Below, one piece after another: positions 2,005-27,724 of a stretch of 64,000 nucleotides of DNA. Under the pieces are notes generated by a model. The model was given only the letters and a program-made list of their open reading frames with translations. It was not told where the DNA came from and made no database searches. The number at the start of each line of letters is the position of its first letter. The stretch's first letter is position 1. Source of the stretch: Nitrospiraceae bacterium (GTDB lineage: Bacteria; Nitrospirota; Thermodesulfovibrionia; UBA6902); the NCBI GenBank assembly GCA_003599425.1, contig QZKC01000083.1, positions 10,372 through 74,371 on the forward strand. Reading direction: 5' to 3'. Position numbers and translations under genes: made by a program.

Positions 2005-2673
2005 TCAGTTGTGTTCCTCTGATCTTTCAGACTCAGGAGAATGTACTTCGCCTTCCTCCGCCTCAGAAGACTGCGTCTCTGCTGTATGCCCCTCTTCAGA
2101 ATATTCCTGATATTCTGTTTCAGCAGGCGCCTGCTCAGGCGCTTCAGGCATATCAAATTCCTGGAACTCTTTCAGGGTAGGCATCTCCGAGAGGTCTTTC
2201 AACCCGAAGTACTGGAGGAACTCCTTTGTCGTGCCATACATGAGCGGCCTGCCCGGCACTTCCTTCCTGCCAAGTATTTTTACCAGCTTTCTGTCAAGGA
2301 GCGTCTTGACCACGCCATCTGAATTCACGCCCCTGATGGCCTCGATCTCAGCTTTTATGATCGGCTGCTTATAGGCAATAATGGCAAGGGTCTCAAGAGA
2401 CGGCTGTGACAGTTTGGCAGGCACCGCGGTGGAAAGGAGTTTTTTCACCCATGGGGCACACGCAGGGTTGGTCACCATCTGTACCCCTTCCGCAACTTCA
2501 GCAACAAGAAGCCCGGTATTATTCAGGGTGTAATCATTGACAAGCTCCCTGACAAGACGCTCGATCTCACCCCTGTCGATCTCCAGTATGTTCTTGAGCG
2601 CATCAAGAGATAATGGTTCCCCGGCAATGAAGAGCAGAGATTCAATGACTGATTTTGCTTCTTTGTCTTCCAT
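2005..2673 (-). CDS. scpB: segregation and condensation protein B (ScpB) with an acidic C-terminal tail
   Basis: 222 aa. The N-terminus SVIESLLFIAGEPLSLDAL and the second winged-helix segment (LETLAIIAYKQPIIKAEIEAIRGVNSDGVVKTLLDRKLV) are typical of ScpB. The E/S-rich tail is not conserved. Confidence 0.85.
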   Translation of the reverse strand: MEDKEAKSVIESLLFIAGEPLSLDALKNILEIDRGEIERLVRELVNDYTLNNTGLLVAEVAEGVQMVTNPACAPWVKKLLSTAVPAKLSQPSLETLAIIAYKQPIIKAEIEAIRGVNSDGVVKTLLDRKLVKILGRKEVPGRPLMYGTTKEFLQYFGLKDLSEMPTLKEFQEFDMPEAPEQAPAETEYQEYSEEGHTAETQSSEAEEGEVHSPESERSEEHN

Positions 2674-2775
2674 AATGAGCTAAAATCGTAACAAAAATGG
2701 TCCAAAAAAGACAACGTACTATGCTCGTCTTTGTCTTTTTTCTAAACTCTTAACTCAAAAACTCTTAACTCTTCG

Positions 2776-3567
2776 TTATCTGAGTATACTTGCTGTGGCT
2801 GTGAGCACTTTAATGATACGGCGGGAATAGGAGGTCTTCTTATGATACCTGCCGAGGGGATGCTCTTTCATGAATTTTGAATCTTTGCCGTTATTCAAGA
2901 GTTCAATCATTCTCATGAAAGACTCCTGCCTGAAATTGTATATGTCCCCAACAGGAATTTCGTAAGGGAAACGGTCATCTATGAACCGTGACAATGGGGC
3001 ATAATTCGGTATTCTCGAAAGGAAAAGGACGCCATTGAATATTTTCTTGTTGGTCTTGAAGGAAAACATCAGGCTTTCAAGCTTGTCCTCCATGAAGATA
3101 TCGTGTCTTTTCTGCATGACCTTATCAAGATCTTTCAGCGCCTTCCTGTATCTTTTGTCAACGATACTGTCTGATTTGACCTCGAGGATAGAATGACCGA
3201 AGGGCACCCTGCTTTTCTTAAGGTTATGCACTACCGCATCAGCACACAGATGCGTCAGGTATCCATAAGCGAATGCCTTCTGCCTGTCGGTTTTTGAGGC
3301 TTCCAGTAAACCCCATGCGATATGCCAGTCGTGGGTATTCTTCTCGTGACCCTGGAATCTCCTGCCGAACAGGATATCCGCGCTCACATTGCCATACAGG
3401 AAGTCATTCTTGTATTTTTTTAGGATACGGTAGATACCAATGGGGATAAGCGCAGCTCCCATCTCCAGTACCTGATACCCAAGGTATACATGAGTAAGCG
3501 GGCCCCACGCATGGGCAAGCGAAGGGATGAGAAAAATATATATAAAAACAGACGCTATAATCATCAT
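2776..3567 (-). CDS. secreted zinc-dependent phospholipase C-like protein (putative)
   Basis: 263 aa. The signal peptide ends AHA|W, so the mature N-terminus would be WGPLTH (N-terminal Trp plus His is the Zn-ligand pattern of the Zn-PLC fold). Further His/Asp clusters are present (THDWHIAWG, YLTHLCADAVVHN). Confidence 0.5.
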   Translation of the reverse strand: MMIIASVFIYIFLIPSLAHAWGPLTHVYLGYQVLEMGAALIPIGIYRILKKYKNDFLYGNVSADILFGRRFQGHEKNTHDWHIAWGLLEASKTDRQKAFAYGYLTHLCADAVVHNLKKSRVPFGHSILEVKSDSIVDKRYRKALKDLDKVMQKRHDIFMEDKLESLMFSFKTNKKIFNGVLFLSRIPNYAPLSRFIDDRFPYEIPVGDIYNFRQESFMRMIELLNNGKDSKFMKEHPLGRYHKKTSYSRRIIKVLTATASILR

Positions 3568-3653
3568 GACTTGTAATAGTTTAGGCTATTTACCAAATAA
3601 AATCCACGTTCAGTAAAATATCCCTGTTTATTCACAAGCTGCATAACTTTACT

Positions 3654-3686
3654 TGAAAAAAGGGCGGAGCATGAGCTCCGCCTCGC
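3654..3686 (-). terminator. intrinsic terminator downstream of the octaheme cytochrome gene
   Basis: The minus strand reads gaGGCGGAGCtcatGCTCCGCCcttttttc, a perfect 8-bp GC stem and 4-nt loop followed by a T-run. It lies 17 nt after the stop at 3703. Confidence 0.8.
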
Positions 3687-3702
3687 ACGTTAAATCCTAT
3701 CC

Positions 3703-5397
3703 CTATTTCGCTGCAGTCTTCATGGCAATAGCGTCATTGATGATCTTTATTCCTTTCTGAGATTCATCAACCGACCGTGTAAGGGATTCCCGCGCCATTT
3801 CCGGGTTGTGGAAGCCGTCCGAATTCTCAGCGGTCCAGAATTCCCAGAGGATATGCGCTTTGAGGTGCTGATCCTGAGCCTGCTTAATGATCTCGGCATC
3901 AAGACCGCTCTTTTTACCCTCGACTATTTTGTCGATCAGAGCAGCAAGATGAAATTCAGCCTTCCTCATTTTGCCCTTTATATGTGCCTTGATAGAGTCG
4001 ATGGAATACTTTGCCTGCTCCTCGGTCCATTTCGGGTGACACTTGATGCACGTCTCCTTGAGCTGAACCCGTGGCGTTACCGCAAAATGCGATGTATAGG
4101 TTTTCCCTGTCTTCTTGTCTTTCACTTTTGGTGTGTGACAACTATCGCATCCGGCCCCTGCTTTTGCGTGTTTTGAATTGTAATAGACCTCAGACTCTGG
4201 ATGCTGGGCCTTCCAGAGAAGCCCTCCGGTCAGCGCATGCTTAAAGTCAAGGAAATTCACCTTGTTGACGTAGTGATCATAGAGGTCGAATACATCCTTA
4301 TAAGGGAAATGGTTAGTCCTCCTGTCTGTCATCGTAACAGAGTATTTCGATGTATCCGGATTTCTGGGCTCATAGCCGGGATTGCAGTTGTATTCGACAT
4401 GGCACTGTCCGCACTGCAGCCTTGTGTCGTACTTGTCAAGCAGCGCGATCTTGCGTGTGAAGCCCCTCATTCCCATCTCAACGACTTTTATTCCGGTCTT
4501 CTTCGGGTCCTTGTGCCAGAGCGTGTCCGCATCCGGTCTCGTAAGCGCGTCTATCAAACCGTCCCTCACGATTCTCGGTTTTGCCGCGTGTGGATCATGG
4601 CAATAGAAACAGTTCAATCCATGCTGCAGGTCTTTCGCAACTTCAAAAACCTTTGAGGTCCTGGCCCATTTCACCCCTTCTACAGGATCTCCCATATATG
4701 ACCAGCCGAGGATGTGATCCTGTGATTTGCACTGCAGGCACACCGGGTTTGCTGCGGCAGCGCTTTGCGGTATGAATGCCTTGTGCTCGGTGGCATCAGG
4801 GTATTTGTCTTCCAGCACATCCCATGCTTTTCCTGTTTCAAAGATGTAATTCCATCCGTTTTTCCCCTGGAATCTCCCTCCATAGGCCCTGTCCACAACG
4901 TAATGGTCAATGAGCATCCAGTTGTGGCTTCTCGTGAGGTTATGCTCTTTGGTAAAGCCATGCCCTGCCATCAGTTTGTCCCAGAACGGATTTGGCGCTC
5001 TGTTAGTAAGCTGTGATTTCTCATCACGCGCAGGCCTGTGCCAGCTTACCTTCATGAAGGTTTCGTACTGTTCCTTATGACACTGGCCGCAGGCCTCCCA
5101 TGATGTATCCGTAACTGGCCGTGTTTCAGGTGTCTGGTTTTCAGCGGCCTTCAGGTGTTTGTCGAGTTCTTTGTGGCAGTTCGAGCAGTTGACTTTAGAA
5201 TGCTTGCCCATCTTGTGAAGCTCCTGGACCTGATCATGACAGTCATAGCATGATTCAACTTTTACATCTTTTTCTTTCTGAGGAGCTTTTTGAGCAGGTG
5301 CGCTTTCATACTGGGCATCAACACCCGAGTAGTAAATGCCGATGGTCAGCACTGTCACAAAAGCCGCTGCAAGCAATATATAGACTTTTTTCTTCAT
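3703..5397 (-). CDS. octaheme cytochrome c nitrite reductase, TvNiR/ONR type
   Basis: 564 aa with an N-terminal signal/anchor. It has seven CxxCH motifs (CYDCH, CSNCH, CGQCH, CFYCH, CGQCH, CDSCH, CIKCH) and one CxxCK (CLQCK) in fourth position, the Lys-ligated catalytic haem arrangement. CHVEYNC carries the Tyr-x-Cys pair described for TvNiR. Confidence 0.8.
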   Translation of the reverse strand: MKKKVYILLAAAFVTVLTIGIYYSGVDAQYESAPAQKAPQKEKDVKVESCYDCHDQVQELHKMGKHSKVNCSNCHKELDKHLKAAENQTPETRPVTDTSWEACGQCHKEQYETFMKVSWHRPARDEKSQLTNRAPNPFWDKLMAGHGFTKEHNLTRSHNWMLIDHYVVDRAYGGRFQGKNGWNYIFETGKAWDVLEDKYPDATEHKAFIPQSAAAANPVCLQCKSQDHILGWSYMGDPVEGVKWARTSKVFEVAKDLQHGLNCFYCHDPHAAKPRIVRDGLIDALTRPDADTLWHKDPKKTGIKVVEMGMRGFTRKIALLDKYDTRLQCGQCHVEYNCNPGYEPRNPDTSKYSVTMTDRRTNHFPYKDVFDLYDHYVNKVNFLDFKHALTGGLLWKAQHPESEVYYNSKHAKAGAGCDSCHTPKVKDKKTGKTYTSHFAVTPRVQLKETCIKCHPKWTEEQAKYSIDSIKAHIKGKMRKAEFHLAALIDKIVEGKKSGLDAEIIKQAQDQHLKAHILWEFWTAENSDGFHNPEMARESLTRSVDESQKGIKIINDAIAMKTAAK

Positions 5398-5533
5398 TGT
5401 AATGCCTCCTTTCTATTGAACGGTTATTATCACCTCGAAATGGTTGATCGGGATATCCATATATAACATCACCTCCTTCATTTTGAATTTCTTCAGGATC
5501 ACGTCTTTTTTTATGCATTCAACTGTTATATTC

Positions 5534-5571
5534 AGCAAATATGCTGTTAATCCCTGTAAAGAACTTGTAAA
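5534..5571 (-). promoter_or_regulatory. phased direct-repeat module S1 (candidate OmpR-type regulator binding array) upstream of the octaheme gene
   Basis: The minus strand reads TTTACA-agttc-TTTACA-ggg-ATTAACAGC-ata-TTTGCT. It lies 137-174 nt upstream of the ATG at 5397. The same module occurs at 5843-5880 and 8679-8716. Confidence 0.6.
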
Positions 5572-5578
5572 TCCGCGG

Positions 5579-5803
5579 TCATTCGATGCTGTAATATGTC
5601 AGGTGGACATTTCTGACATTTTCGATCCTCCTGAGAAATTCCACTTCTTCCTTCATTGCATCAATAGTTTCGCGCCTGAAAAGGAAGAACGCTTTGTCAG
5701 TTACGATATCGCTCACATCCATCGATCTCCTTTCCATTTCCTTCACAATGGCATCAATATTATTTTTCCCTGCTGCCTCTACAAATCCACTCGCAACAAC
5801 CAT
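5579..5803 (-). CDS. small hypothetical cytoplasmic protein (74 aa) between the regulator gene and the octaheme gene
   Basis: ORF-track entry 5579..5806. The ATG at 5803 is preceded by SD GAGGAGAGG. The gene is co-oriented with its flanking genes and has its own upstream copy of the repeat module. No family was recognised. Confidence 0.45.
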   Translation of the reverse strand: MVVASGFVEAAGKNNIDAIVKEMERRSMDVSDIVTDKAFFLFRRETIDAMKEEVEFLRRIENVRNVHLTYYSIE

Positions 5804-5842
5804 CACGCCTCTCCTCGATGGTTCTTATTTAACAGATTGCGC

Positions 5843-5880
5843 GGTAAAGGTGCTGTTAATCTGTGTAAAGGAGATGTAAA
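5843..5880 (-). promoter_or_regulatory. phased direct-repeat module S2
   Basis: The minus strand reads TTTACA-tctcc-TTTACA-cag-ATTAACAGC-acc-TTTACC, followed by gcgcAATCTGTT. It lies 40-77 nt upstream of the small ORF ATG at 5803. Confidence 0.6.
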
Positions 5881-6010
5881 TTTATGAAATTATGACGCAG
5901 GAGTGCTGCCAGAAATGCCCGATCCCTGAAAGGATGAAAATGAGGTTTTGAAGGTTTAATATTCGCATTTATTAATTGATGTTGCTGAGTTGGTGCAAAA
6001 CGTCGGCAGT

Positions 6011-6694
6011 TCAGTCCGCAAACCGGTATCCGGCTCCGGGGACCGTGATGATGTATTTGGGATTGGACGGGTCTTTCTCTATCTTCTGTCTCAGGTGCTG
6101 GATATGCACGTCTATAACCCTGCTCCATGAATAAATGGATGAGCGCTTCCATAAGTGCTTTCTTATTGATTCCCTGCTCACTGCTTCGCCGCGATGGCTG
6201 ATAAAAAAACGGAGCAGGTCGTATTCTTTCGGGGTAAGGTCAATGGTCTTGCCGGCTAATGTCACAAGACGTTTTTTGAAATCTACTTTCAGGTTCCCGA
6301 TGGCAACCTTCTCTTCTGCAGCAGGCGCGCTTGTCCTGCGCAGGCAGGCCTTTATCCTCGCGACCAGTTCAAGTGTTTCAAATGGCTTGACCACATAGTC
6401 ATCAGCGCCGCTCTCAAGGCCAAAGACCTTATCCGAGACCTTGTCCTTTGCGGTCAGCATGATAATGGGCATTCCCGGATACTCCTTCCTAAGATCACGG
6501 CAGATCTCAGTGCCATCCCTGTCCGGCAGCATCACATCAAGGATCACGAGATCAGGGTTGTGCTCCGATAAAATTTCCTGCGCCGCTGCCCAGTTGTCAG
6601 CCGTATCGACTTCATAACCATGCAGTTCAATGTTCGCTTTGAGGACTTTCAGGATATCCCTGTCATCATCAACTACGAGTATCCGGTTACTCAT
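6011..6694 (-). CDS. OmpR/PhoB-family response regulator
   Basis: The receiver domain has ILVVDDD, DLVILDVMLPDRDG and the LTAK lysine. The C-terminal winged helix has LTPKEYDLLRFF and YIITVPGAGYRF. The track start at 6784 is probably too long, because the ATG at 6694 (MSNRILVVDDD) is preceded by GGAAGGGAG. Confidence 0.9.
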   Translation of the reverse strand: MSNRILVVDDDRDILKVLKANIELHGYEVDTADNWAAAQEILSEHNPDLVILDVMLPDRDGTEICRDLRKEYPGMPIIMLTAKDKVSDKVFGLESGADDYVVKPFETLELVARIKACLRRTSAPAAEEKVAIGNLKVDFKKRLVTLAGKTIDLTPKEYDLLRFFISHRGEAVSRESIRKHLWKRSSIYSWSRVIDVHIQHLRQKIEKDPSNPKYIITVPGAGYRFAD

Positions 6695-6814
6695 GGTGAA
6701 CTCCCTTCCAATAGAAGGCACAAACGGTAGACTGTGCTTTTTGTCGATCATGGAAATATCGGCGCAGTGCTGCCCTTTGTGCATTAAAAGATACTAAATG
6801 AAAATCTCTGGGAA

Positions 6815-8476
6815 TTAATAACATGGCTTATCATTTCCCTTTCTCGGCAAGGTAAAACATATACCTGCGCCTTTTTCACCTGTGTCCGCCACCCTGATCT
6901 CTCCTTTGTGAGCCTCGATGATACCTTTACAGATAGCCAGTCCGAGACCTGTTCCGTACCGGTTGCCTACTGTATAGAACTTGTCAAAGATTTTCTCTCT
7001 GACCTCCTGAGGTATCCCCGGGCCCTGGTCCCTGATTGTCACGATAACACTTCTGTCAGTCTCAGTAACCGTTATCCGGATCTCTGAATTGTCAGGGCTG
7101 AAGTTGATCGCGTTTGAAACGAGGTTTATCAGTACCTGCCGTATCCTGTCCTGGTCCGCGGAGACTGCTGTCGCAGGGACTGACACTATCTGAAATGTAA
7201 TGCCCCTTGCGGCAGTTATGGTCTGAAAACTTATTATCACCTCTTTTATGAGGGAAAGCATTTTCACCTGGCTGTAGTGAAGATCGAACATCCCGGATTC
7301 AATGCGTTCGAGGTCGAGGGTGTCGTTTACCATCCGTATGAGCCTGTCTGAATTTTTTTTAACCACCTCAAGAAATTCCATAATCTCTTCTGTGTCCCCG
7401 CTGCTGCGCGAGATTGTCGGGATCCTCGCATGCAGGTAATCCATCGCTCCCTTGATGGACGTCATAGGCGTCCTCAGTTCATGCGATATCTTCGCGATGA
7501 AATCAGATTTCCTCTCGTTCAGTTCAGTAAGCCTCGCATTGGCTTCCTCAAGGCTTTTCGTTGCAGCCTGCACCTTTTTTTCAAGGCTTGTGTGATACCC
7601 GGTCAGGGCCTTTGACATGTCAATAAATGATTTGCTGAGTTCCTCGATCTCATCTCCTGTCCTGATCAGGGAAGTTTGATCGCCTTCTCCGCCGTAGAAC
7701 TCCTGCATTGATGCCTTCAATTGTTTGACGGGGCGAAGGACCAGCTCTTTCATCATGACATAAAGCACGATCATCAGGATGCTGATCGTTGCGATGCTTG
7801 CCAGCACCATATCCCTTCGTCCCGAACGTATCATGGAAAACGCATAATCCATCGGTACAGCTATGCTGATGGCTCCCCTCACGTCCCCCACTTTATAACC
7901 CTGATGTGCATGACACTGAAGGCAGGAATCCTCGATATACAGCGGGGCAATATACCGGTAATATCGGGCTGTGCCGGTTCTCTCTATCATGGAAGCTTCT
8001 GTCTTCAGACGGTCTTCAAATTCATGGAGCGCTTCGCTCTCAAACGGGTCCGGCGCGTTTTCCGGATTTACGAGTCTGAGACTCGTTATGTGAAACCAGT
8101 AGAGCCCTTTTTCAAGGGCATATTTTGAAAGTTCCTTTGTGACCATGGCAGGACTTTCTTTTGTGTATCTCCTGCCTTGAACATCCACTATTTCCGGCTC
8201 TGCAAGATAAGGGCTCGCTCCTTTCCAGGGGACTTTTTCAACAAAAACGCCGCCATGATCAGCGACCCACTCACGCGTAAGGATGATCTGGCGGAACAGC
8301 GTTTTCGCCTGCTGGTCCACCTGTTTCAGGATAAGCTGTTCATGGTTCCTCGATATGAAGTAAAGAGATACCCCCATTGCAACGGACAGTACGGCGGCCA
8401 CTCCAATGATAAATTTCAGGCTGAGGCTGATCTTTAAGGCCCTGAACTCCGCGAGCAATTCTTTCAGTGTCAACAT
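6815..8476 (-). CDS. sensor histidine kinase with an extracytoplasmic DUF3365 (Tll0287-like) haem-c sensor domain
   Basis: 553 aa. Order: TM1, sensor region with a single CLQCH motif in the DUF3365-typical context (YYRYIAPLYIEDSCLQCHAHQGYKVGDVRGAISI), TM2, HAMP-like linker, H-box SHELRTPMTSI, then ATPase boxes (NLVSNAINFS, DQGPGI, GTGLGL). Confidence 0.85.
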   Translation of the reverse strand: MLTLKELLAEFRALKISLSLKFIIGVAAVLSVAMGVSLYFISRNHEQLILKQVDQQAKTLFRQIILTREWVADHGGVFVEKVPWKGASPYLAEPEIVDVQGRRYTKESPAMVTKELSKYALEKGLYWFHITSLRLVNPENAPDPFESEALHEFEDRLKTEASMIERTGTARYYRYIAPLYIEDSCLQCHAHQGYKVGDVRGAISIAVPMDYAFSMIRSGRRDMVLASIATISILMIVLYVMMKELVLRPVKQLKASMQEFYGGEGDQTSLIRTGDEIEELSKSFIDMSKALTGYHTSLEKKVQAATKSLEEANARLTELNERKSDFIAKISHELRTPMTSIKGAMDYLHARIPTISRSSGDTEEIMEFLEVVKKNSDRLIRMVNDTLDLERIESGMFDLHYSQVKMLSLIKEVIISFQTITAARGITFQIVSVPATAVSADQDRIRQVLINLVSNAINFSPDNSEIRITVTETDRSVIVTIRDQGPGIPQEVREKIFDKFYTVGNRYGTGLGLAICKGIIEAHKGEIRVADTGEKGAGICFTLPRKGNDKPCY

Positions 8477-8678
8477 TACCCCGTCCCGGCGTGTGATTTC
8501 AGTTTCTTATGCTTCAACAACAATTGTAAGTAGCTTGCAGCGACGTGTCAATCAGAAAAAGGGATCAATTCGTGAAGGATTATCGTGCTATTAAAAATTC
8601 TTAATTGCAAGCCATCGGCAATTATGATATTTGAAGAGTTAAGTAGTGCAATGTGTATTATAAATGCTAATGAAGAAC

Positions 8679-8716
8679 TTTACCTGTTCTTTACATACAT
8701 TAACTGAACATTTACA
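8679..8716 (+). promoter_or_regulatory. phased direct-repeat module S3 upstream of napA
   Basis: The plus strand reads TTTACC-tgttc-TTTACA-tac-ATTAACTGA-aca-TTTACA, followed by ggggAATCTGTT. It lies 151-188 nt upstream of the napA ATG and has the same orientation relative to its gene as S1 and S2. Confidence 0.6.
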
Positions 8717-8866
8717 GGGGAATCTGTTATGTTTTCTGCTAAGGAACGTGTCAGTGATTAGTGACAGCTTCAGTAAAGAAACAACTGACACATATAACCT
8801 TTCGTATGAATTCGAATATAACGTAATTTAAACAAGATCATTTATGAAAGCGTAAAGGAGGCCACC

Positions 8867-11638
8867 ATGTTAGTGTCGAGAAGACAATTTCTCAAGACAA
8901 GCGCCGCAGTGAGCGCCGCAACCGCGATAGGCATGACCGTTCCTGATGAATTAATGGCAATAGCTGAAGAGACACAGGCAGGATGGCGATGGGACAAGTC
9001 AGTCTGCAGGTTTTGCGGTACAGGATGCGGGATCATGGTCGCCACAAAAAACGACATGATCGTCGCTGTAAAGGGAGACCCCCTTGCCCCGGTAAACATG
9101 GGACTGAACTGCATCAAGGGTTATTTCAATGCAAAGATCATGTATGGGGCTGACAGGCTTACAGACCCTCTGATGAGATTGAATGATAAAGGCGAATTCG
9201 ACAAGAAAGGCAAATTCAAACTGGTCACCTGGAAAAAGGCCTTTGAAGAAATGGCAAAACAGTTCAGGAAATACTACGGCGAACTCGGGCCCACAGGTGT
9301 CGCTCTCTTCGGTTCAGGCCAATACACGATCATGGAAGGGATAGCTGCCGTAAAACTGATGAAAGCGGGTTTCAGGAGCAACAATATCGATCCGAATGCC
9401 AGGCACTGCATGGCAAGCGCAGTCGCAGCATTCATTCAGACCTTCGGCATTGACGAGCCTGCGGGAAACTACGATGATATGCACTATGCTGATTCGATTG
9501 TCCTCTGGGGAGCAAATATGTCCGAGATGCACCCGGTCCTTTGGTCCAAGATAACTGACAGGAAGCTGAGCAAATCCGACTGGGTGAAGATCGTGAACAT
9601 ATCTACTTTCGCAAACAGGTGCTCAAGCCTTTCAGATCTCGAAATAATCATAAAACCCAACACAGACCTTGCGCTCCTGAATTACATTGCACGGGAGATC
9701 GTCTTCAATCGCCCTGAAGCGATAGACTGGGATTTTGTAAACGCCAATTGTGTTTTTGCGACCGGCCCTGTTGATATCGGGTACGGATTACGTTCAGAAA
9801 CCAGCCATTCCAGATACAAATTGAGCGAACTCGATACCGCCACCAGGGAGATATCAAAGATCATCACCAAAGAAGAAGCTCATGCAATGAGTTCCCTCGG
9901 CATACAGGAAGGCCAGAAAATGGAGATGAAAAATGCCGCAGCCGCAGGCAAACACTGGCTTATAAATTTTGAAGATTTTAAAAAGGGACTCGAACCATAC
10001 ACTCTGAATTTTGTTGCGGAGCTCGCAAAGGGAGATCCGGACGAATCTCTGGACGAGTTCAAAAAGAAACTGCTGACGCTCGTGGATTTCTATGCTGACA
10101 AGAAAAGAAGGGTCACCAGTTTCTGGACCATGGGATTTAACCAGCATGTGCGCGGCACATGGGTCAATGAACAAATATATACGGTCCACCTCCTGATCGG
10201 GAAGCAGTCGCAGCCCGGCAATAGCGCCTTCAGCCTTACAGGGCAGCCGAGCGCGTGCGGGACTGCCAGAGAAGTCGGCACCTTCTCTCACAGGCTTCCT
10301 GCTGACATGGTCGTTGACAATCCCGGCCACAGGTCGGTCACGGAAAAGTTATGGAAGCTCCCCGAAGGAACACTGAATCCTGTAATTGGTTCACACTATG
10401 TAAAGATTATGAGAGATATGGAAGACGGAAAGATCAGGTGGGTCTGGGTTCAGGTAAACAATCCCTGGCAGAATACAGCCAATTTAAATCACTGGATAAC
10501 TGCCGCCAGAGAAATGGACAATTTCATCGTTGTGTCAGAGTCATATCCCGGAATTTCAGCCAAAGTAGCTGACCTGATCCTTCCCAGCGCTATGATATTT
10601 GAAAAGTGGGGGGCCTACGGCAATGCTGAAAGACGGACGCAGCACTGGAAACAGCAGGTGACCCCGGTTGGCAATGCAATGTCCGATACCTGGCAGCTTG
10701 TGGAGTTCTCAAAAATGATCACGCTCTCAGAAGTGTGGAAAGAACACAATATAACAAAAGATGTAACTATTCCCGGCGTTCTCGACAAGGCAATGGCGAT
10801 GGGCTATAAGGAGACCGATACCCTTTATGACGTCCTCTTTGCAAACAGCGAGGCGAAGTCATATAAATGGCCTGACCCTGTCGGGCAAGGTTTTATTAAT
10901 TCCGAGGCAGCCGGCGACACGAGAAAAATAGAGGGCTTTAAAGGATGCGGTTTCTTTATTCAGAAATATCTCTGGGAAGAGTACAGGAAATTCGGTATGG
11001 GGAACGGACATGATCTTGCAGACTTCGATACCTACCACAAGGTAAGAGGACTGAGATGGCCTGTTGTCGACGGTAAAGAAACTCTCTGGAGATTCAATGC
11101 CGAGTATGACCCCTATGCCAAGGCCGCCAATCACGGCGCATTCGCCTTTTACGGAAAGGCAATGAAAGAGCTGCCTTCAGGCGACCTCTCCGGCCCTAAA
11201 GGGGAAGAGAAGTTCAAATTGCCGAACAAGGCAAAGATATTCCTGCGGCATTATATTGAACCTGCGGAAATACCGAGCAAGGAATATCCGCTATGGCTCT
11301 GCACAGGCAGGGTTCTTGAGCACTGGCACACCGGTACAATGACCATGCGCGTGCCTGAACTTTACCGCGCAGTCCCCGAAGCGGTCTGTTTCATGAGCCC
11401 AAAAGATGCAAAGGGGTATGACTTCAAGGACGGAGACCTCATCTGGATCGAGTCAAGAAGAGGAAAAGTGAAGGCACATGTGGAAACACGGGGACGGAAC
11501 AATCCTCCGCGCGGGCTGATCTTTGTCCCGTGGTTCGATGAACACGTCCTGATAAACAAGGTAACGCTGGACGCAACCTGTCCGATCTCTAAAGAGACGG
11601 ACTTCAAGAAATGCGCGGTGAAGGTGTATAAGGCTTAA
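8867..11638 (+). CDS. napA: periplasmic nitrate reductase catalytic subunit NapA (long form)
   Basis: 923 aa with SD AAGGAGG. Tat signal [19 protein letters not shown] and [4Fe-4S] motif CRFCGTGCG. Collinear NapA strings are present: [58 protein letters not shown] and [13 protein letters not shown]. Confidence 0.95.
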
Positions 11639-11659
11639 GAAGTAGAGAGTAGAGAGAAT

Positions 11660-12448
11660 ATGATGCCGGAAAGAAGAGCGTTTTTAATCAACTCGATCAG
11701 GAATCTCGGCCTCGCAGCTTCAGGAGGCATGGTGTGGAGCGTCTTTGTTGAAGAAGGCAAATCTGCTCCGTTTATCCTGAGGCCCCCTGGCGCGCTGCCT
11801 GAAGCAAAGTTCATTGCCTCGTGCATAAAATGCGGGATGTGCGTTGAAGCATGCCCCTACGATGCGCTTACGCTTGCTGAACCTGGAGATAATAAACCTG
11901 TAGGAACCCCATATTTTATCCCAAGGACAAACCCGTGCTATATGTGCAAAGACATCCCATGCGTCCCGGTCTGTCCAAGCGGGGCGCTTGATGCATCACT
12001 CGTCAGCAAGAAAGACCTAAATGGAGAAACGAGACTGAACATTGATCTCGCAAAAATGGGGCTCGCCGTAATAGACAGGGAAACCTGTGTCGCGTATGCA
12101 GGTATCCAGTGTGATGCCTGCTACCGCGCATGCCCCCTGATCGATAAGGCGATCACAGTCGAATATACGCGGCTTGAAAGGACAGGTAAACACGCCATAC
12201 TGGCGCCTGTTGTTCACAGTAGCGCCTGTACAGGATGCGGGCTATGCGAGAAGGCGTGCGTAACGAAAAAGGCGTCCATTTTTATTCTTCCCCGTGAGAA
12301 AGTAATGGGCGAATCAGACATGAGCTATATAAAAGGCTGGGATGCCCAGGATGAAGAACGTCTGAGAGAAGCGCCAGAGGAAGTAACAACAAAGACCCCG
12401 AGAAGCAGTAAAAATCCTGTGGATTATTTGAATCAGGAGGAATTCTAA
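11660..12448 (+). CDS. napG: NapG, periplasmic 4x[4Fe-4S] ferredoxin subunit of the quinol dehydrogenase
   Basis: 262 aa. Tat-like N-terminus RRAFLINSIRNLGLAASGG. Four Cys clusters (CIKCGMCVEACP, CYMCKDIPCVPVCP, CDACYRACP, CTGCGLCEKAC). It lies immediately after napA. Confidence 0.85.
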   Translation: MMPERRAFLINSIRNLGLAASGGMVWSVFVEEGKSAPFILRPPGALPEAKFIASCIKCGMCVEACPYDALTLAEPGDNKPVGTPYFIPRTNPCYMCKDIPCVPVCPSGALDASLVSKKDLNGETRLNIDLAKMGLAVIDRETCVAYAGIQCDACYRACPLIDKAITVEYTRLERTGKHAILAPVVHSSACTGCGLCEKACVTKKASIFILPREKVMGESDMSYIKGWDAQDEERLREAPEEVTTKTPRSSKNPVDYLNQEEF

Positions 12449-13252
12449 TTGAAAAAATATAAATACCTCATAGCACGAAGATTGACGCAGTCGGCCATAC
12501 TGTTTCTCTTCTTTGCCGGCAACGCATCCGGCTGGCAGGTATTAAAAGGCAATCTGAGTTCAGCAAAGGCCTTCGATCTCATTCCGCTTTCTGACCCCTT
12601 TGCTGCCCTGCAGATCACTTCAACAGGGACCTTGCTGGCCTGGAACGCGGTAATCGGCGCTGTGATAATTTTTCTCATATATGCAATTGCAGGGGGAAGA
12701 CTGTTTTGCGGATGGGTCTGTCCTGTAAATATGGTGACTGACCTGGCTAACAGATTAAGGGATGTTTTCATCGGAGATGCTGCCTTGAGATCATGGGAGA
12801 TCAAGAGGGGAATACGATACTGGGTCACAGGATTGTCATTGATACTGTCCGCACTGCTTGGAGTCGCGGCATTTGAATGGATAAGTCCGATAGGAACCCT
12901 GCACAGAGGGATCATTTATGGGATAGGCCTTGGATGGGCCTTTGTAGCAGCCGTGTTCTTTTTTGATCTCTTTGCTGTGAAGAATGGTTTCTGCGGCCAT
13001 GTCTGCCCCCTCGGCGGCTTCTATGCGCTTACAGGCAGGTTCGGTTTTTTGCGCGTCGGCTATGATAAGGATAAGTGCACGTTGTGCATGAAGTGCCTTG
13101 ATATCTGCCCCGAAAAACAGGTCCTTTATATGGTGGGACAGCAGAGCGGAGCCGTTGTATCCGGGGAATGCATAAACTGCGGCAGGTGTATCGAGGTCTG
13201 CCGGGATAATGCCTTGCGGTTCAGCAATATATATTCAAAAAAATTCTCATGA
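12449..13252 (+). CDS. napH: NapH, membrane-bound Fe-S quinol dehydrogenase subunit
   Basis: The TTG start abuts the napG TAA. It has hydrophobic helices with CGWVCP and CGHVCP motifs. The C-terminus carries two ferredoxin motifs, CTLCMKCLDICP and CINCGRCIEVC. Confidence 0.85.
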   Translation: MKKYKYLIARRLTQSAILFLFFAGNASGWQVLKGNLSSAKAFDLIPLSDPFAALQITSTGTLLAWNAVIGAVIIFLIYAIAGGRLFCGWVCPVNMVTDLANRLRDVFIGDAALRSWEIKRGIRYWVTGLSLILSALLGVAAFEWISPIGTLHRGIIYGIGLGWAFVAAVFFFDLFAVKNGFCGHVCPLGGFYALTGRFGFLRVGYDKDKCTLCMKCLDICPEKQVLYMVGQQSGAVVSGECINCGRCIEVCRDNALRFSNIYSKKFS

Positions 13253-13272
13253 ACAAAAAGGAGGATCAAGTC

Positions 13273-13821
13273 ATGTCGAGAAAAAGCCGTACTGTGCTGA
13301 CAATTGTCATTGCCGGAATAATGTCCTTATGCGCAGTCCACACGTATGCGCAGCAGGAAAAAGGATTTTCATCAGAGGATCTCGGCATCAGAAAAGAGTC
13401 ATTATATGACGAGAGCTCTGAAACGCCCCTGCACGGAGAGCCTATCAGAAAAGAGCCCGGAGAGAGCAAGAGGTTTGAGAGGTCCTTTGAGAACAGCCCG
13501 CCGCTAATCCCCCATGACATAACCGGCATGCTGCCTATCGCTCAGACAGATAACCTGTGCATGGGATGTCACATGCCTGCTGAAGCAGGAGCCACAGGCG
13601 CTACACCTATACCCAAATCTCACTTTGTAGACCTCAATACAGGAATGGAACTTGGAGGGAATCTGGATGGAGACCGCTATAACTGCATGCAGTGCCATGT
13701 CATGCAGACCACCATTACTCCGCCAGTAAAGAATCTCTTTAAAGGCGAGTTCAGAGATAAGAAGGGTAACTACAGGTCAAACCTGCTGGATGTCCTGAAT
13801 GAAGGGGTAACGACAGAATAA
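13273..13821 (+). CDS. napB: NapB, dihaem cytochrome c small subunit
   Basis: Signal peptide (TVLTIVIAGIMSLCAVHTYA) and two CxxCH motifs (CMGCH, CMQCH). A strong SD AAGGAGG lies 7 nt before the ATG at 13273. The track start at 13249 overlaps the napH stop as ATGA and is the alternative start. Confidence 0.85.
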   Translation: MSRKSRTVLTIVIAGIMSLCAVHTYAQQEKGFSSEDLGIRKESLYDESSETPLHGEPIRKEPGESKRFERSFENSPPLIPHDITGMLPIAQTDNLCMGCHMPAEAGATGATPIPKSHFVDLNTGMELGGNLDGDRYNCMQCHVMQTTITPPVKNLFKGEFRDKKGNYRSNLLDVLNEGVTTE

Positions 13822-13840
13822 ATCTTAAGGAGGGAGCAAT

Positions 13841-14140
13841 ATGAACGTATCAAGCATAGTTGTAAAAACAGTCCCGGGACAGCTTGCTGAAGCTATTGAT
13901 GCACTTAATGCCCTTGACTTCTGTGAAGTCCATTTTTATGACTCTGAAGGAAGGATAGTCGTGACCATAGAAGGTAAACGTATAAACGACCAGATGGAGA
14001 TCATGAAACGCATCCAGAACATGCCTTTTGTGCAATGCGCAGACCTGGCATATTCCTATTGCGAAGGCGAGATGAGAGAGTCGCTCAGGGGAATAAATGA
14101 AATCCGGAAAAAAGACTCCTTGTGCCGGGATGAAGGATAG
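13841..14140 (+). CDS. napD: NapD, NapA Tat-signal-binding chaperone
   Basis: 99 aa with SD AAGGAGGGAG. The N-terminus MNVSSIVVKT...FCEVHFYDSEGRIVVTIEG matches the NapD pattern. It is the last gene of the nap cluster. Confidence 0.75.
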   Translation: MNVSSIVVKTVPGQLAEAIDALNALDFCEVHFYDSEGRIVVTIEGKRINDQMEIMKRIQNMPFVQCADLAYSYCEGEMRESLRGINEIRKKDSLCRDEG

Positions 14141-15376: not shown

Positions 15377-15814
15377 ATGAAGAGAACGATAATGAAATTT
15401 ATTACAGTGACATTCCTGGCGGTTTCATGGACCGGGTCAACATGGGCAATACACGACCTGTTCCGGGCCATGGACGCTGACAAGGACGGGAAGGTCTCAC
15501 AGGAGGAGTTTTCCCGGGATATGGAAAAAGCCGCCTTTGACAGACTGGACACAAATAAAGACGGGGTCCTTACCTCTGATGAGTGGAGGATGATGGACTT
15601 TCTCGATGAAAGCGATAAAAAGCAGGAGGTCTTCCGACATATCGATACAAATGCAGACACAGGGATCAGTTTCCCGGAATTTTCAAATTACGTGGAAAAA
15701 TATTCGAACATAGAAGAAGCATTTATGATAACTGACAAGAACAAAGACGGAAGCCTCTCTCCTGATGAGGTCACATTACGTCCTTTGTTCAGGCTTATTA
15801 CTATTCGCTACTGA
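15377..15814 (+). CDS. secreted EF-hand calcium-binding protein (four EF loops)
   Basis: Signal peptide FITVTFLAVSWTGSTWA. Four Dx[DN]xDG-type loops are present: DADKDGKVSQEEF, DTNKDGVLTSDEW, DTNADTGISFPEF and DKNKDGSLSPDEV. Confidence 0.8.
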   Translation: MKRTIMKFITVTFLAVSWTGSTWAIHDLFRAMDADKDGKVSQEEFSRDMEKAAFDRLDTNKDGVLTSDEWRMMDFLDESDKKQEVFRHIDTNADTGISFPEFSNYVEKYSNIEEAFMITDKNKDGSLSPDEVTLRPLFRLITIRY

Positions 15815-25240: not shown

Positions 25241-27724
25241 TTAATATATTACTTCAAAAACCTCCAGTGTCCCTGACTTTCCTTTTATTTCAGCAGGTGG
25301 AAGTTCTTTACACTGGATGTCATGAGAATCAAGGGTTATAAATGAAGATTTTGTTAAAAGTATCTGTCGTTCCTTGGCAAGTCCGGAGAACCTGGAAGCA
25401 ACATTTACTGTATCACCGATAACTGTAAACTCCATGCGCTCAGGAGAACCGATATTGCCTAAAAAAACCTCTCCGGTATTAATACCTATCCCGATATCCA
25501 TAGAAAAACCAAACTCCTCTGTCCAATGCTTATTTAATAAGGGCATCTGTTTCATCATCTGGATCGCAGCCTTTATTGCATTCTGAGCCGGGTTTTTCAC
25601 ATGCACCAGGCTTCCGAAAACAGCTACAATGGCATCGCCTATATATTTATCCAGAGAGCCCTGATTATCAAAGATGATCTTTGCCATCGCGGAGAAATAC
25701 TCATTCAGGATATGTATTAACTGATCCGGCGGACGTGTCTCCGTTATTGTAGTGAAATTCCTGATGTCAGAAAAGAGTACTGTCACTATCTTCCTGTCCC
25801 CGCCGAGATTCAATTGAACATTGTTCTTAACAACCTGATCTACGATCTGGGGCGAGAGGTAGCGGGAAAGATTCGCGCGCACAGTTTCTTCCTTTTTCAT
25901 CTGCTCCGCGAGCCTGGCATTTTCAATCGCAATGGCGCCCTGATTGGTAAGTGTCTCAAGAAGGTATATGTCTTCCCGCGTATAAAAATGCCCTGATTTT
26001 TTGTGGCCCAGAGCAAGAATACCCGTGACCTCATTCCGGTATAGGAGTGGTACAGCAATGCTTGCGCCTATTTCATTAAATTTCATTATGCATGAATCTT
26101 TCACGTCCGCATACCTTGAATCTTCCGCGATGTCATATTCCGTAATAAGCTTCTTTTCTCTTGTTACCAGGGCAAGCAGTGGGTCATCACAGGGCAGGCA
26201 CCCGCCTATGATGTGTTCAGAATTTGCACCCGGATTGTCACTGATAAAGATCGTCTGACACTCACTCGCCTGTTTCTGCATAAGAATTATGCCGGCTTTA
26301 TCGATAAACATTTCTTTCCTTACAGTGCCTATGATCTTCTTTACTATTTCATCCATATTAAGCAACGACGTTAAAGCGTTGCTTACGGAGATTACCGTGT
26401 TTTTGTAATCATATTTCTTCCTGTAAAATAATAAGTCCACTATGTCCTGAATCTTTCGACTGACCGGGTTAAAGAAAAATACAACCAGCAAGGCAAAAAT
26501 TACAGGATAAACATTTTCTGCAGAGTCGCCAAGAAATGGACGCAATATGATAGTTTCCAGTATTACCTGTATCGCAAAATATGTGGTGCCGATAAGCGCC
26601 GTCATGATAACGTAACCAACGGCCCGCTTGATATAAACATCCACATCGAAGAGATTGTGCTTCGCAATGGCATAACTGAGAGAAACCGGAAGGAAGATAA
26701 AAAATAGCATATTTAAAGCAGGGAGCCTCACTAAGAACAAGTGAAAAAAGAGTATTGTTATTAAATTTACAACCGGCACAACAAGCGCCACTGCAGATCC
26801 CATGAGAATGATCCTGGATCGAATACGTGAAATAGCTGACAGAGGTTTTACATACGTATAGATAGTCGATACAAAAAACGAGATCAATGATGTGGCAATA
26901 TAAACAGTACATATTTTCTTCAAGTAAAGAGGCACATCCACAACCAGTGATGCCTCGGAACGCATTACTGCGAAAAGCACAAGGGACAAAATATAAGGAA
27001 CCATGACAGATGCCTTGCGATCCCGTGCCCATGTCCACTCGTAGGGAAATGTCTGCGCTATGTGCAGTATTGATGCAGGCAGAAAGGCAGAGGCGAAGAT
27101 ATATACACTGTCCAACCATTCAGGTGACAATTTACTGGTAAAAAGAAAGGACATATAAAGGCCTGCGTTAAACATCGTGATCAGGAAAGCCCATGACGGT
27201 CGACCCTCCGGTTTCATGAAGAATACAATTACTCCCAGTATAAAAAAGACCGTGCCCAAGAACCAGGTAAATCCAAAACGCATAAAGGCCCTCGAAAAAC
27301 CAAGAGGTACATTTGGGACTCTTATCGAAAAAATGTTTCCATTACGATCAACTTCGTAAATGTTAGCTCCCGGGACATCTCTGACCAGATGTTCTATCAA
27401 CTCTCCAAATGATCTAATCTTGAAATCGTTAATACCTGTAAATACATCGCCCTCTCTTAATCCTGACTTTTCAGCTTCTCCATTTACATCTATTACAACT
27501 ATCCTGTCGCTCACATCACTGACAGCCCATCCAAAATCTGCCTGACTTCCCCACGTTACAATATTCAGAAAGTATAGAGTGCCAATGAAGAAATAACTCA
27601 GGGTCAACAATAAGAACACTGATAAGAGAGGACGTCTGATCAGCAGGATTGACTTGATATTCAGTTGCCCCTTCCCGCTCAATACTGATTTTTGCTCCGG
27701 AGATGATTTAATATTGTCTTCCAT
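25241..27724 (-). CDS. membrane-bound class III adenylate/guanylate cyclase with PDZ, multi-TM, GAF and cyclase domains
   Basis: 827 aa. A PDZ-like segment (GEAEKSGLREGDVFTGINDFKI) is followed by about 8 hydrophobic helices. Then comes GAF (GILALGHKKSGHFYTREDIYLLETLTNQGAIAIENARL). The cyclase core has VTVLFSDIRNFTTITE, KYIGDAIVAVFG and VIGDTVNVASR. Confidence 0.85.
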   Translation of the reverse strand: MEDNIKSSPEQKSVLSGKGQLNIKSILLIRRPLLSVFLLLTLSYFFIGTLYFLNIVTWGSQADFGWAVSDVSDRIVVIDVNGEAEKSGLREGDVFTGINDFKIRSFGELIEHLVRDVPGANIYEVDRNGNIFSIRVPNVPLGFSRAFMRFGFTWFLGTVFFILGVIVFFMKPEGRPSWAFLITMFNAGLYMSFLFTSKLSPEWLDSVYIFASAFLPASILHIAQTFPYEWTWARDRKASVMVPYILSLVLFAVMRSEASLVVDVPLYLKKICTVYIATSLISFFVSTIYTYVKPLSAISRIRSRIILMGSAVALVVPVVNLITILFFHLFLVRLPALNMLFFIFLPVSLSYAIAKHNLFDVDVYIKRAVGYVIMTALIGTTYFAIQVILETIILRPFLGDSAENVYPVIFALLVVFFFNPVSRKIQDIVDLLFYRKKYDYKNTVISVSNALTSLLNMDEIVKKIIGTVRKEMFIDKAGIILMQKQASECQTIFISDNPGANSEHIIGGCLPCDDPLLALVTREKKLITEYDIAEDSRYADVKDSCIMKFNEIGASIAVPLLYRNEVTGILALGHKKSGHFYTREDIYLLETLTNQGAIAIENARLAEQMKKEETVRANLSRYLSPQIVDQVVKNNVQLNLGGDRKIVTVLFSDIRNFTTITETRPPDQLIHILNEYFSAMAKIIFDNQGSLDKYIGDAIVAVFGSLVHVKNPAQNAIKAAIQMMKQMPLLNKHWTEEFGFSMDIGIGINTGEVFLGNIGSPERMEFTVIGDTVNVASRFSGLAKERQILLTKSSFITLDSHDIQCKELPPAEIKGKSGTLEVFEVIY

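Follow-up and report, generated by a model that had tools for sequence, protein, structure and literature searches.

A Conserved Four-Repeat Promoter Array Predicted to Connect a c-Heme Cache Two-Component System With Nitrate-Ammonification Genes in Uncultured Nitrospirota

Introduction

How might a bacterium switch on its periplasmic nitrate reductase together with the enzyme that carries nitrite on to ammonium, when the genes for the two lie in separate transcription units? This question is raised by a 64-kilobase (kb) stretch of an uncultured Nitrospirota genome (“Nitrospiraceae bacterium”), referred to here as the window, in which a nap operon, a small NapD-like gene, and a gene for an eight-heme nitrite reductase lie around the genes of a two-component system. 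Upstream of the nitrite reductase gene, the small gene, and napA there are three similar arrays of four direct repeats, termed S1, S2, and S3, respectively (Table 1). Judging from sequence comparison, the explanation that we consider probable is that these arrays are copies of one promoter module, which would be bound by the adjoining response regulator in its phosphorylated state and would activate the genes for nitrate ammonification.

Results and Discussion

Three Arrays of Phased Direct Repeats

Each of the arrays is 38 base pairs (bp) long, with half-sites that start at offsets 0, 11, 21, and 32; in S3, these read, in order, TTTACC, TTTACA, TTAACT, and TTTACA. The first-pass annotation of this DNA had given the letters, coordinates, and gapless phasing of all three, and a re-reading of the window found them exact. 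A search of both strands of the window for the pattern TTTACAN5TTTACAN3ATTAAC, with at most three mismatches allowed, returned S1, S2, and S3 as the sole matches, compared with 0.08 matches expected from shuffles of the window; three or more matches occurred in 0 of 100 shuffles. A relaxed, two-repeat search gave one extra match in the window (∼27420–27445, minus strand; TTTAC-n5-TTAAC), which is at chance level and lies within an open reading frame (ORF) of 827 amino acids (aa) at 25241–27724.

The three arrays share ∼70% of their positions, and this likeness is confined to ∼55 bp: when 180-bp stretches were aligned, the flanking regions failed to align. The sequence AATCTGTT, which the same annotation had reported to be common to S2 and S3 on the 3′ side of the array, is indeed shared, and forms part of a conserved CTGnTA element that is present in 16–18 of the first 19 sites compared below. 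This element is absent from S1, in which the fourth repeat is also degenerate (TTTGCT).

Conservation of the Array in Related Loci

Relatives of the window regulator are found in metagenomes (more than 100 at 72–86% identity), and ten loci were compared (L161, L163, and L165–L172; L164 is a duplicate of L163), in which the regulator orthologues are 73–82% identical to that of the window. Every position of each locus was scored by its matches to 27 specified consensus positions. The position-by-position anatomy is based on the first 19 of the 21 arrays.

These 21 arrays score 23–27 of 27 in the ten orthologous loci; nothing scores 20–22, and the best background score is 19. In an unrelated control, comprised of 1.87 megabases (Mb) from 156 loci that encode paralogous OmpR-type regulators, the maximum was also 19 of 27 and no position reached 20. 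The phylogenetic footprinting upstream of nap and octaheme orthologues that had been proposed along with the first description of the arrays recovers 21 of them, in ten loci and in a fixed orientation.

Gene order is kept as well: napA is divergent from, or 3′ of, the kinase and regulator genes, and after the regulator gene comes the small gene and then an octaheme cytochrome gene. Wherever the gene downstream of an array is intact, the array points toward it. The gene faced is the small NapD-like gene for eight arrays, an octaheme cytochrome gene for six, napA for five, and a CarboxypepD_reg-like gene for one; the last array appears to be an orphan. The counterpart of S2 is located immediately 3′ of the regulator gene in eight loci, that of S3 lies upstream of napA in four (L163, L165, L166, and L170), and that of S1 lies upstream of a gene for an octaheme protein of the hydroxylamine oxidoreductase (HAO) type in five (L163, L165, L166, L168, and L170). 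In L163 and L170, where three unrelated genes intervene between the kinase gene and napA, the array is still found at napA.

The number of operators follows the number of transcription units. Against the three arrays of the window, three loci have a single array each, ahead of an operon in which target genes are joined: cytochrome-napAGHBD in L168 (10712–18092), napD-like-cytochrome in L171 (10698–12629), and napD-napAGHB-…-cytochrome in L172 (10710–17448).

Two further loci have features of their own. In L167, an array scoring 23 of 27 (13030–13067, minus strand) points into an rve-family transposase gene (12161–13003), and appears to be an orphaned promoter with its target displaced by an insertion sequence; the second array of this locus (10697–10734) precedes the CarboxypepD_reg-like gene, which is not among the usual targets. 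In L161, an array divergent from the kinase gene (8309–8346, minus strand) is degraded to 19 of 27, and the kinase (8355–9995, plus strand) aligns over its full length, although its sensor domain is interrupted by an in-frame stop (KEL*KY, near 8705). There is no NapD-like or cytochrome gene 3′ of the regulator gene in L161; the locus does have a C552-type gene, with no array in the 259 nucleotides (nt) available upstream. In this one locus sensor and operator may have decayed together, or the assembly may be at fault.

Anatomy of the Array Promoter

The consensus repeats are TTTACa, TTTACA, TTAACA, and TTTACA, at steps of 11, 10, and 11 bp, and the array can be divided into two 21-bp boxes, aNA-TTTACa-nnTTC-TTTACA and aNA-TTAACA-nCACA-TTTACA. 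All 21 arrays contain four TTWAC cores on the same strand (i.e., direct repeats). In the first 19 sites, the cores (positions 1–5, 12–16, 22–26, which read TTAAC, and 33–37) are invariant or nearly so, and there are no indels. The spacers are variable save for short flanks: TTC before the second repeat, A-n-A before the first and third, and CACA before the fourth.

An extended −10-like element, TGnTAnnnT, occurs at array positions 47–55, with its hexamer eleven bases past the array; the CTGnTA noted above takes up positions 46–51. Among the 19 sites, the TG (positions 47–48) is present in 16–17 and the TA (50–51) in 17–18, the hexamer has a T-rich end at positions 55–56, and an A at position 62, seven bases past the element, is found in 17. 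Measured from the fourth repeat, the element lies 8–11 bp downstream and the A follows 7 nt later in 16–18 of the 19 sites, and the transcription starts given here are predicted from this A. At the small gene, the predicted start (A 5819) lies 16 nt before the ATG, which has GGAGAGG as its ribosome-binding site. On the predicted start, the four repeats would lie at about −61/−56, −50/−45, −40/−35, and −29/−24.

A sigma-70 scan called none of the arrays as a −35/−10 pair and found no −35 hexamer at them. As read from the sequence, the array stands where the −35 element would be, beside the extended −10-like element. The kinase-regulator operon, by comparison, has a near-consensus sigma-70 promoter of its own (Table 1), with no array accompanying it; six of eight loci have this promoter, 58–75 nt ahead of the kinase gene. 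This canonical promoter indicates that bacteria of the clade use ordinary −35/−10 promoters, and the operon looks to be conventionally expressed, with no autoregulation through the array.

These features bear on whether the arrays are protein operators at all, rather than promoter DNA that was duplicated recently, a short repeat element, or a stack of −35-like hexamers and UP-like A/T tracts. The repeat TTTACA is one mismatch from the sigma-70 −35 hexamer TTGACA, and the window copies are similar enough to each other to recall a duplication. However, the phased cores are conserved while the spacers diverge, both in the window and across ten genomes; none of the repeats is 16–18 bp away from the −10-like hexamer, the gaps measuring 11 and 22 bp; true TTGACA-17-TAnAAT promoters are present at the kinase gene; and there are no copies of the array elsewhere in the window. 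We give a non-operator origin almost no credence.

S1 is the most degenerate of the 21 sites in its promoter-proximal half, where TTTGCT is followed by CAGTTGAAT instead of TGnTAnnnT. The hexamer TATAAC occurs 3 nt past its fourth repeat (within 5510–5533, minus strand), and the S1 promoter may have been remodelled at the time that the reductase gene downstream was replaced (see below).

A candidate RNA element in the napA leader was also considered. Upstream of napA in five loci, the array and the −10 region are conserved, but the leaders of 110–200 nt are not; because of this, and because an Rfam scan of positions 5200–9100 gave no match at E values up to 1, the candidate was dropped.

Target Genes and the Small NapD-Like Gene

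The gene behind the array changes while the array is kept. In the window it encodes an eight-heme nitrite reductase of the TvNiR type, whereas most relatives have an HAO-family octaheme protein instead (∼486 aa; PF13447; L163, L165, L166, L168, L170, L171, and L172), for which 4qo5 is the best match in the PDB and hydroxylamine oxidoreductases come next. Within the HAO family, the reductive members convert nitrite or hydroxylamine to ammonium. The retention of the array through this non-orthologous exchange, together with its presence at napA, therefore supports the nitrate-to-ammonium regulon suggested in the first-pass annotation: the arrays face napA, the NapD-like gene, and the octaheme cytochrome genes, and would place them under common control.

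The target most consistently preceded by an array is the small gene, which had earlier been listed merely as a small ORF. It is overlapped in antisense by a plus-strand ORF of 147 aa (5444–5887) that spans S1 and S2 and had been regarded as a probable artefact. The antisense frame is open in all orthologues, so that its stop-free length is indecisive for the coding strand. In six orthologues, however, the substitutions follow the minus-strand frame of the small gene, with 0.40 differences per site at first codon positions, 0.24 at second positions, and 0.64 at third positions. On this evidence the minus strand is the coding strand at 5444–5887: the small gene is real, and the view of the plus-strand ORF as an artefact holds.

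The small ORF can further be refined to a NapD-like gene. Its product is 34–51% identical across six loci, and the AlphaFold model (predicted local distance difference test score, pLDDT, 91) has a b-a-b-b-a-b fold that has the NapD structure 2jsx among its top structural matches, with a template modelling (TM) score of 0.80 at 21% identity, amid generic ferredoxin-like matches. The window protein has no Pfam match and does not reach the PF03927 threshold; sub-threshold PF03927 matches occur in three of six relatives (best E value 8e-4), hhalign against local NapD sequences gave a probability of 7%, and a protein search with the small protein found two relatives. The positional counterparts of the small gene in L171 and L172 do match Pfam NapD and align colinearly with it, and in L172 this napD directly precedes napA. 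With moderate confidence, based on the predicted fold and on synteny with weak sequence similarity, we consider the product to be NapD-like.

The Regulator and Its Candidate Link to the Array

The regulator contains PF00072 (REC) and PF00486 (Trans_reg_C) domains. The solved structures nearest to it are those of MtrA, PrrA, RegX3, KdpE, and PhoP (E values of 1e-42 to 1e-50), along with RpaA. An OmpR-type regulator and its kinase had been placed between the three sites on first reading, and both gene assignments are upheld by Pfam. Also in line with that reading, which took the phased direct repeats for an OmpR/PhoB-type operator, the arrays have the features of a putative operator of this kind: direct repeats, half-sites spaced 10–11 bp apart, and an adjoining gene for a REC and Trans_reg_C (winged-helix) regulator. 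Arrays were found only at loci with a gene for a close regulator orthologue, always with a copy directly 3′ of that gene. The stretch of the recognition helix, IYSWSRVIDVHIQHLRQKIE, is invariant in 11 orthologues, which matches the invariance of the repeat cores. The product of 6011–6694 is the most likely binder of the array, as judged from these sequence features.

In the mechanism that we propose, the kinase would read a periplasmic signal by way of a c-type heme attached covalently in its Cache domain. Two head-to-tail dimers of the phosphorylated regulator would then sit at about −61 to −24 and, in the manner of PhoB at tandem pho boxes, bring in RNA polymerase, such that napAGHBD, the small NapD-like gene, and the gene for the eight-heme nitrite reductase would be turned on jointly; the regulator and kinase themselves would be made from their own conventional promoter.

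Several points weigh against this explanation, some concerning the link to the regulator and others, taken up below, concerning activation. The fourth repeat of S1 is weak and its −10-like element is poor. The relevant genomes scanned for the array amount to ∼0.24 Mb. The array-regulator link is drawn from adjacency, co-occurrence, and repeat architecture, and because the recognition helix is invariant across the orthologues, it leaves no co-variation of helix and motif by which the link could be tested. Scans of contigs with the regulator returned mostly generic OmpR paralogues, along with relatives in L001, L002, L081, and L082, all of which are without nap neighbors and without the motif; two of these, the distant orthologues in L001 (70% identity) and L081 (63%), have the same recognition helix and the same kinase type as the window.

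The L001 and L081 orthologues would fit an arrangement in which the arrays are real operators of another transcription factor, encoded elsewhere, and the adjoining two-component system is a bystander or co-regulator, as would L169, where a second OmpR-type system is located next door. This second system is not conserved in the other loci, however, and the confinement of the array to loci with a close regulator orthologue, always with one copy directly 3′ of it, speaks against an outside factor. So do the direct repeats at 10–11 bp, which suit OmpR/PhoB-type proteins but not the palindromic sites of Crp/Fnr, NsrR, or NarL/NarP, and the apparent joint decay of kinase and array in L161. Control by another factor is, in our estimation, very improbable.

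The Direction of Control

On balance, and by analogy with related regulators, activation is favored over repression, because the arrays spare the −10-like element and the predicted start, appear to replace the −35 element, and are fixed in orientation and distance. The alternative is a repressor operator, in which the phosphorylated regulator, bound at −61 to −24 of extended −10 promoters with no need of a −35 element, would block RNA polymerase until a signal, for instance nitric oxide (NO) turning the kinase off, relieves the block. Extended −10 promoters can be activator-independent, and the conserved TG before the −10-like hexamer means that the array promoters might likewise work without an activator. 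Many heme-based NO sensors, usually including H-NOX and NosP, inhibit their kinases in the NO-bound state, which also fits repression. Read on the opposite strand, the array repeats are TGTAAA/TGTTAA (TGTWAA), which we take to resemble the ArcA box. ArcA, a related regulator, binds two to five direct repeats spaced 11 bp apart, which are variably placed and mostly repress by occlusion (PMC3798270). Fixed position and orientation, in contrast, are a mark of direct-contact activation of the PhoB/OmpR type and are not seen for ArcA (PMC3798270); the arrays described here keep both at nearly every site, never overlap the −10-like element or the predicted start, and have no −35 hexamer. Repression through the arrays strikes us as the less likely but still a serious alternative, and we retain activation, with modest confidence, as the preferred direction of control.

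The Kinase Sensor and Its Signal

The kinase has a Tll0287-like-HAMP-HisKA-HATPase architecture without a receiver or Hpt domain (Pfam). Its match to PF11845 (E value 1e-23) covers residues 48–208 and includes the motif CLQCH at residues 185–189 (∼7910–7924); CL-x-CH is present in all ten kinases examined. A 2026 preprint gives the DUF3365/Tll0287 family the new name sCache_heme, demonstrates a covalent c-type heme, notes enrichment in Nitrospirota, and proposes NO sensing for members linked to signalling, of which one from Pseudomonas azotoformans binds NO but not O2 (bioRxiv 10.64898/2026.02.01.703092). Because the window kinase belongs to this family and carries the CXXCH motif, and because of the NO binding reported in the preprint, the signal is probably NO or a related nitrogen oxide or redox cue; the candidates, by analogy, are NO, nitrite, and the periplasmic redox state.

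In L172, a hybrid-cluster protein gene (Prismane) is divergent from a Crp/Fnr-type regulator gene (2480–4967), a few kb upstream of the kinase gene. Such a pairing is typical of nitrosative-stress responses, and this locus may have a second nitrogen-oxide sensing circuit next to the array system.

Comparison With Known Regulatory Systems

The geometry of the tandem pho boxes bound by Escherichia coli PhoB (e.g., at pstS) is well established, and much of it recurs here: a regulator of the OmpR/PhoB family, 11-bp direct repeats that form two ∼22-bp boxes with four half-sites, and an array of fixed orientation that ends ∼10–11 bp upstream of the −10-like element and appears to stand in for the −35 element. 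The half-site, however, is TTTACA/TTAACA instead of CTGTCAT, the kinase has a periplasmic c-type heme Cache domain and is not PhoR, the targets are genes of nitrate/nitrite respiration, and the TG is conserved. At the window arrays there is no CTGTCAT, PhoR, or phosphate-acquisition target.

ArcA also belongs to the OmpR family, governs respiratory genes, and recognizes repeats with an 11-bp centre-to-centre spacing, but its sites are variable and mostly repressing (PMC3798270), unlike the arrays. The kinase described here is not an ArcB-like hybrid, and the regulon appears small and local as opposed to global; neither an ArcB-type hybrid kinase nor variable position is found. The arrays therefore resemble both pho boxes and ArcA arrays in sequence layout but, by half-site, kinase, and targets, are neither.

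The regulators of nap and nrf genes covered by a 2025 review comprise NarX-NarL/NarQ-NarP, FNR/Crp, NsrR, NssA/B/C, and NrfS-NrfR, as described from Proteobacteria, Wolinella, and Desulfovibrio, and do not include an OmpR-type system (PMC12285233). Their output is the one predicted here, in that nitrogen oxides govern the periplasmic nitrate reductase in concert with the ammonifying nitrite reductase; they differ from the present case in that NarL/NarP bind to inverted heptamers, NrfR depends on sigma-54, and the rest belong to the Crp/Fnr or Rrf2 type (PMC12285233). Here, the sensor is a c-type heme Cache domain, the repeats are direct, and the regulator has a Trans_reg_C rather than a GerE domain, which sets it apart from NarL/NarP. 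With respect to sCache_heme sensors, the window kinase has PF11845 and the defining CXXCH in its extracytoplasmic domain; the preprint describing them gives no target genes or DNA motif, whereas here the array genes are the predicted output (bioRxiv 10.64898/2026.02.01.703092).

Gene Assignment in the Window

Genes in the window were assigned by Pfam and PDB searches and by translations with motif counts (Table 1). For the eight-heme nitrite reductase, the matches to PDB entries 2zo5 and 2ot4 extend over residues 43–563 of the protein. Unconnected with the arrays, positions 15377–15814 (plus strand) encode a protein of 145 aa that has four EF-hand motifs, a kind of calcium-binding protein that is uncommon in bacteria.

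Table 1. Array, promoter, and gene features of the 64-kb window, with the sequence or the evidence for each.
Feature	Position	Strand	Sequence or evidence
Array S1, upstream of eight-heme nitrite reductase gene	5534–5571	−	TTTACAagttcTTTACAgggATTAACAGCataTTTGCT
Array S2, upstream of small NapD-like gene	5843–5880	−	TTTACAtctccTTTACAcagATTAACAGCaccTTTACC; 26/27 consensus positions
Array S3, upstream of napA	8679–8716	+	TTTACCtgttcTTTACAtacATTAACTGAacaTTTACA; 25/27 consensus positions
Poor −10-like element, S1 promoter	5517–5525	−	CAGTTGAAT; predicted start ∼5510
Extended −10-like element, predicted promoter of NapD-like gene	5826–5834	−	TGTTAAATA; position conservation; predicted start at A 5819
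Extended −10-like element, predicted napA promoter	8725–8733	+	TGTTATGTT; position conservation; predicted start at ∼8738–8742
Near-consensus sigma-70 promoter (TTGACA-17-TACAAT), kinase-regulator operon	8523–8551	−	sigma-70 scan
Eight-heme nitrite reductase, TvNiR type	3703–5397	−	seven CXXCH and one CXXCK; Pfam Cytochrom_C552; PDB eight-heme nitrite reductases, E ∼1e-162
Small NapD-like gene, 74 aa, ferredoxin-fold product	5579–5803	−	conservation, codon pattern, fold, synteny
OmpR/PhoB-family response regulator, 227 aa, REC and winged helix, predicted phospho-acceptor D53	6011–6694	−	Pfam
Sensor histidine kinase, periplasmic Tll0287-like/sCache_heme, HAMP, HisKA, HATPase	6815–8476	−	Pfam
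nap operon, napAGHBD	8867–14140	+	Pfam
napA	8867–11638	+	Pfam
napG	11660–12448	+	name inferred from domain content and gene order
napH	12449–13252	+	name inferred from domain content and gene order
napB	13249–13821	+	Pfam
Canonical napD, after napB	13841–14140	+	Pfam

Implications

Taken together, these observations incline us, with modest confidence, to the view that the arrays represent the first predicted output regulon of a periplasmic c-type heme Cache kinase: an OmpR-type switch dedicated to nitrate ammonification, the operator of which is a portable four-repeat module, copied to every transcription unit and retained through the exchange of the octaheme enzyme. If true, this would be a kind of nap and nitrite reductase regulator that is absent from current reviews, and it would offer a candidate first physiological output for the sCache_heme kinases, a matter left open by those who described them. 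Among uncultured Nitrospirota, it would also give one clade a cis-element along with a regulator candidate, and it would exemplify a promoter module that is preserved even as the enzyme it serves is exchanged and operons join or break apart. Dissimilatory nitrate reduction to ammonium keeps nitrogen within ecosystems, and the array motif could serve to read the regulons for this process straight from metagenomes.

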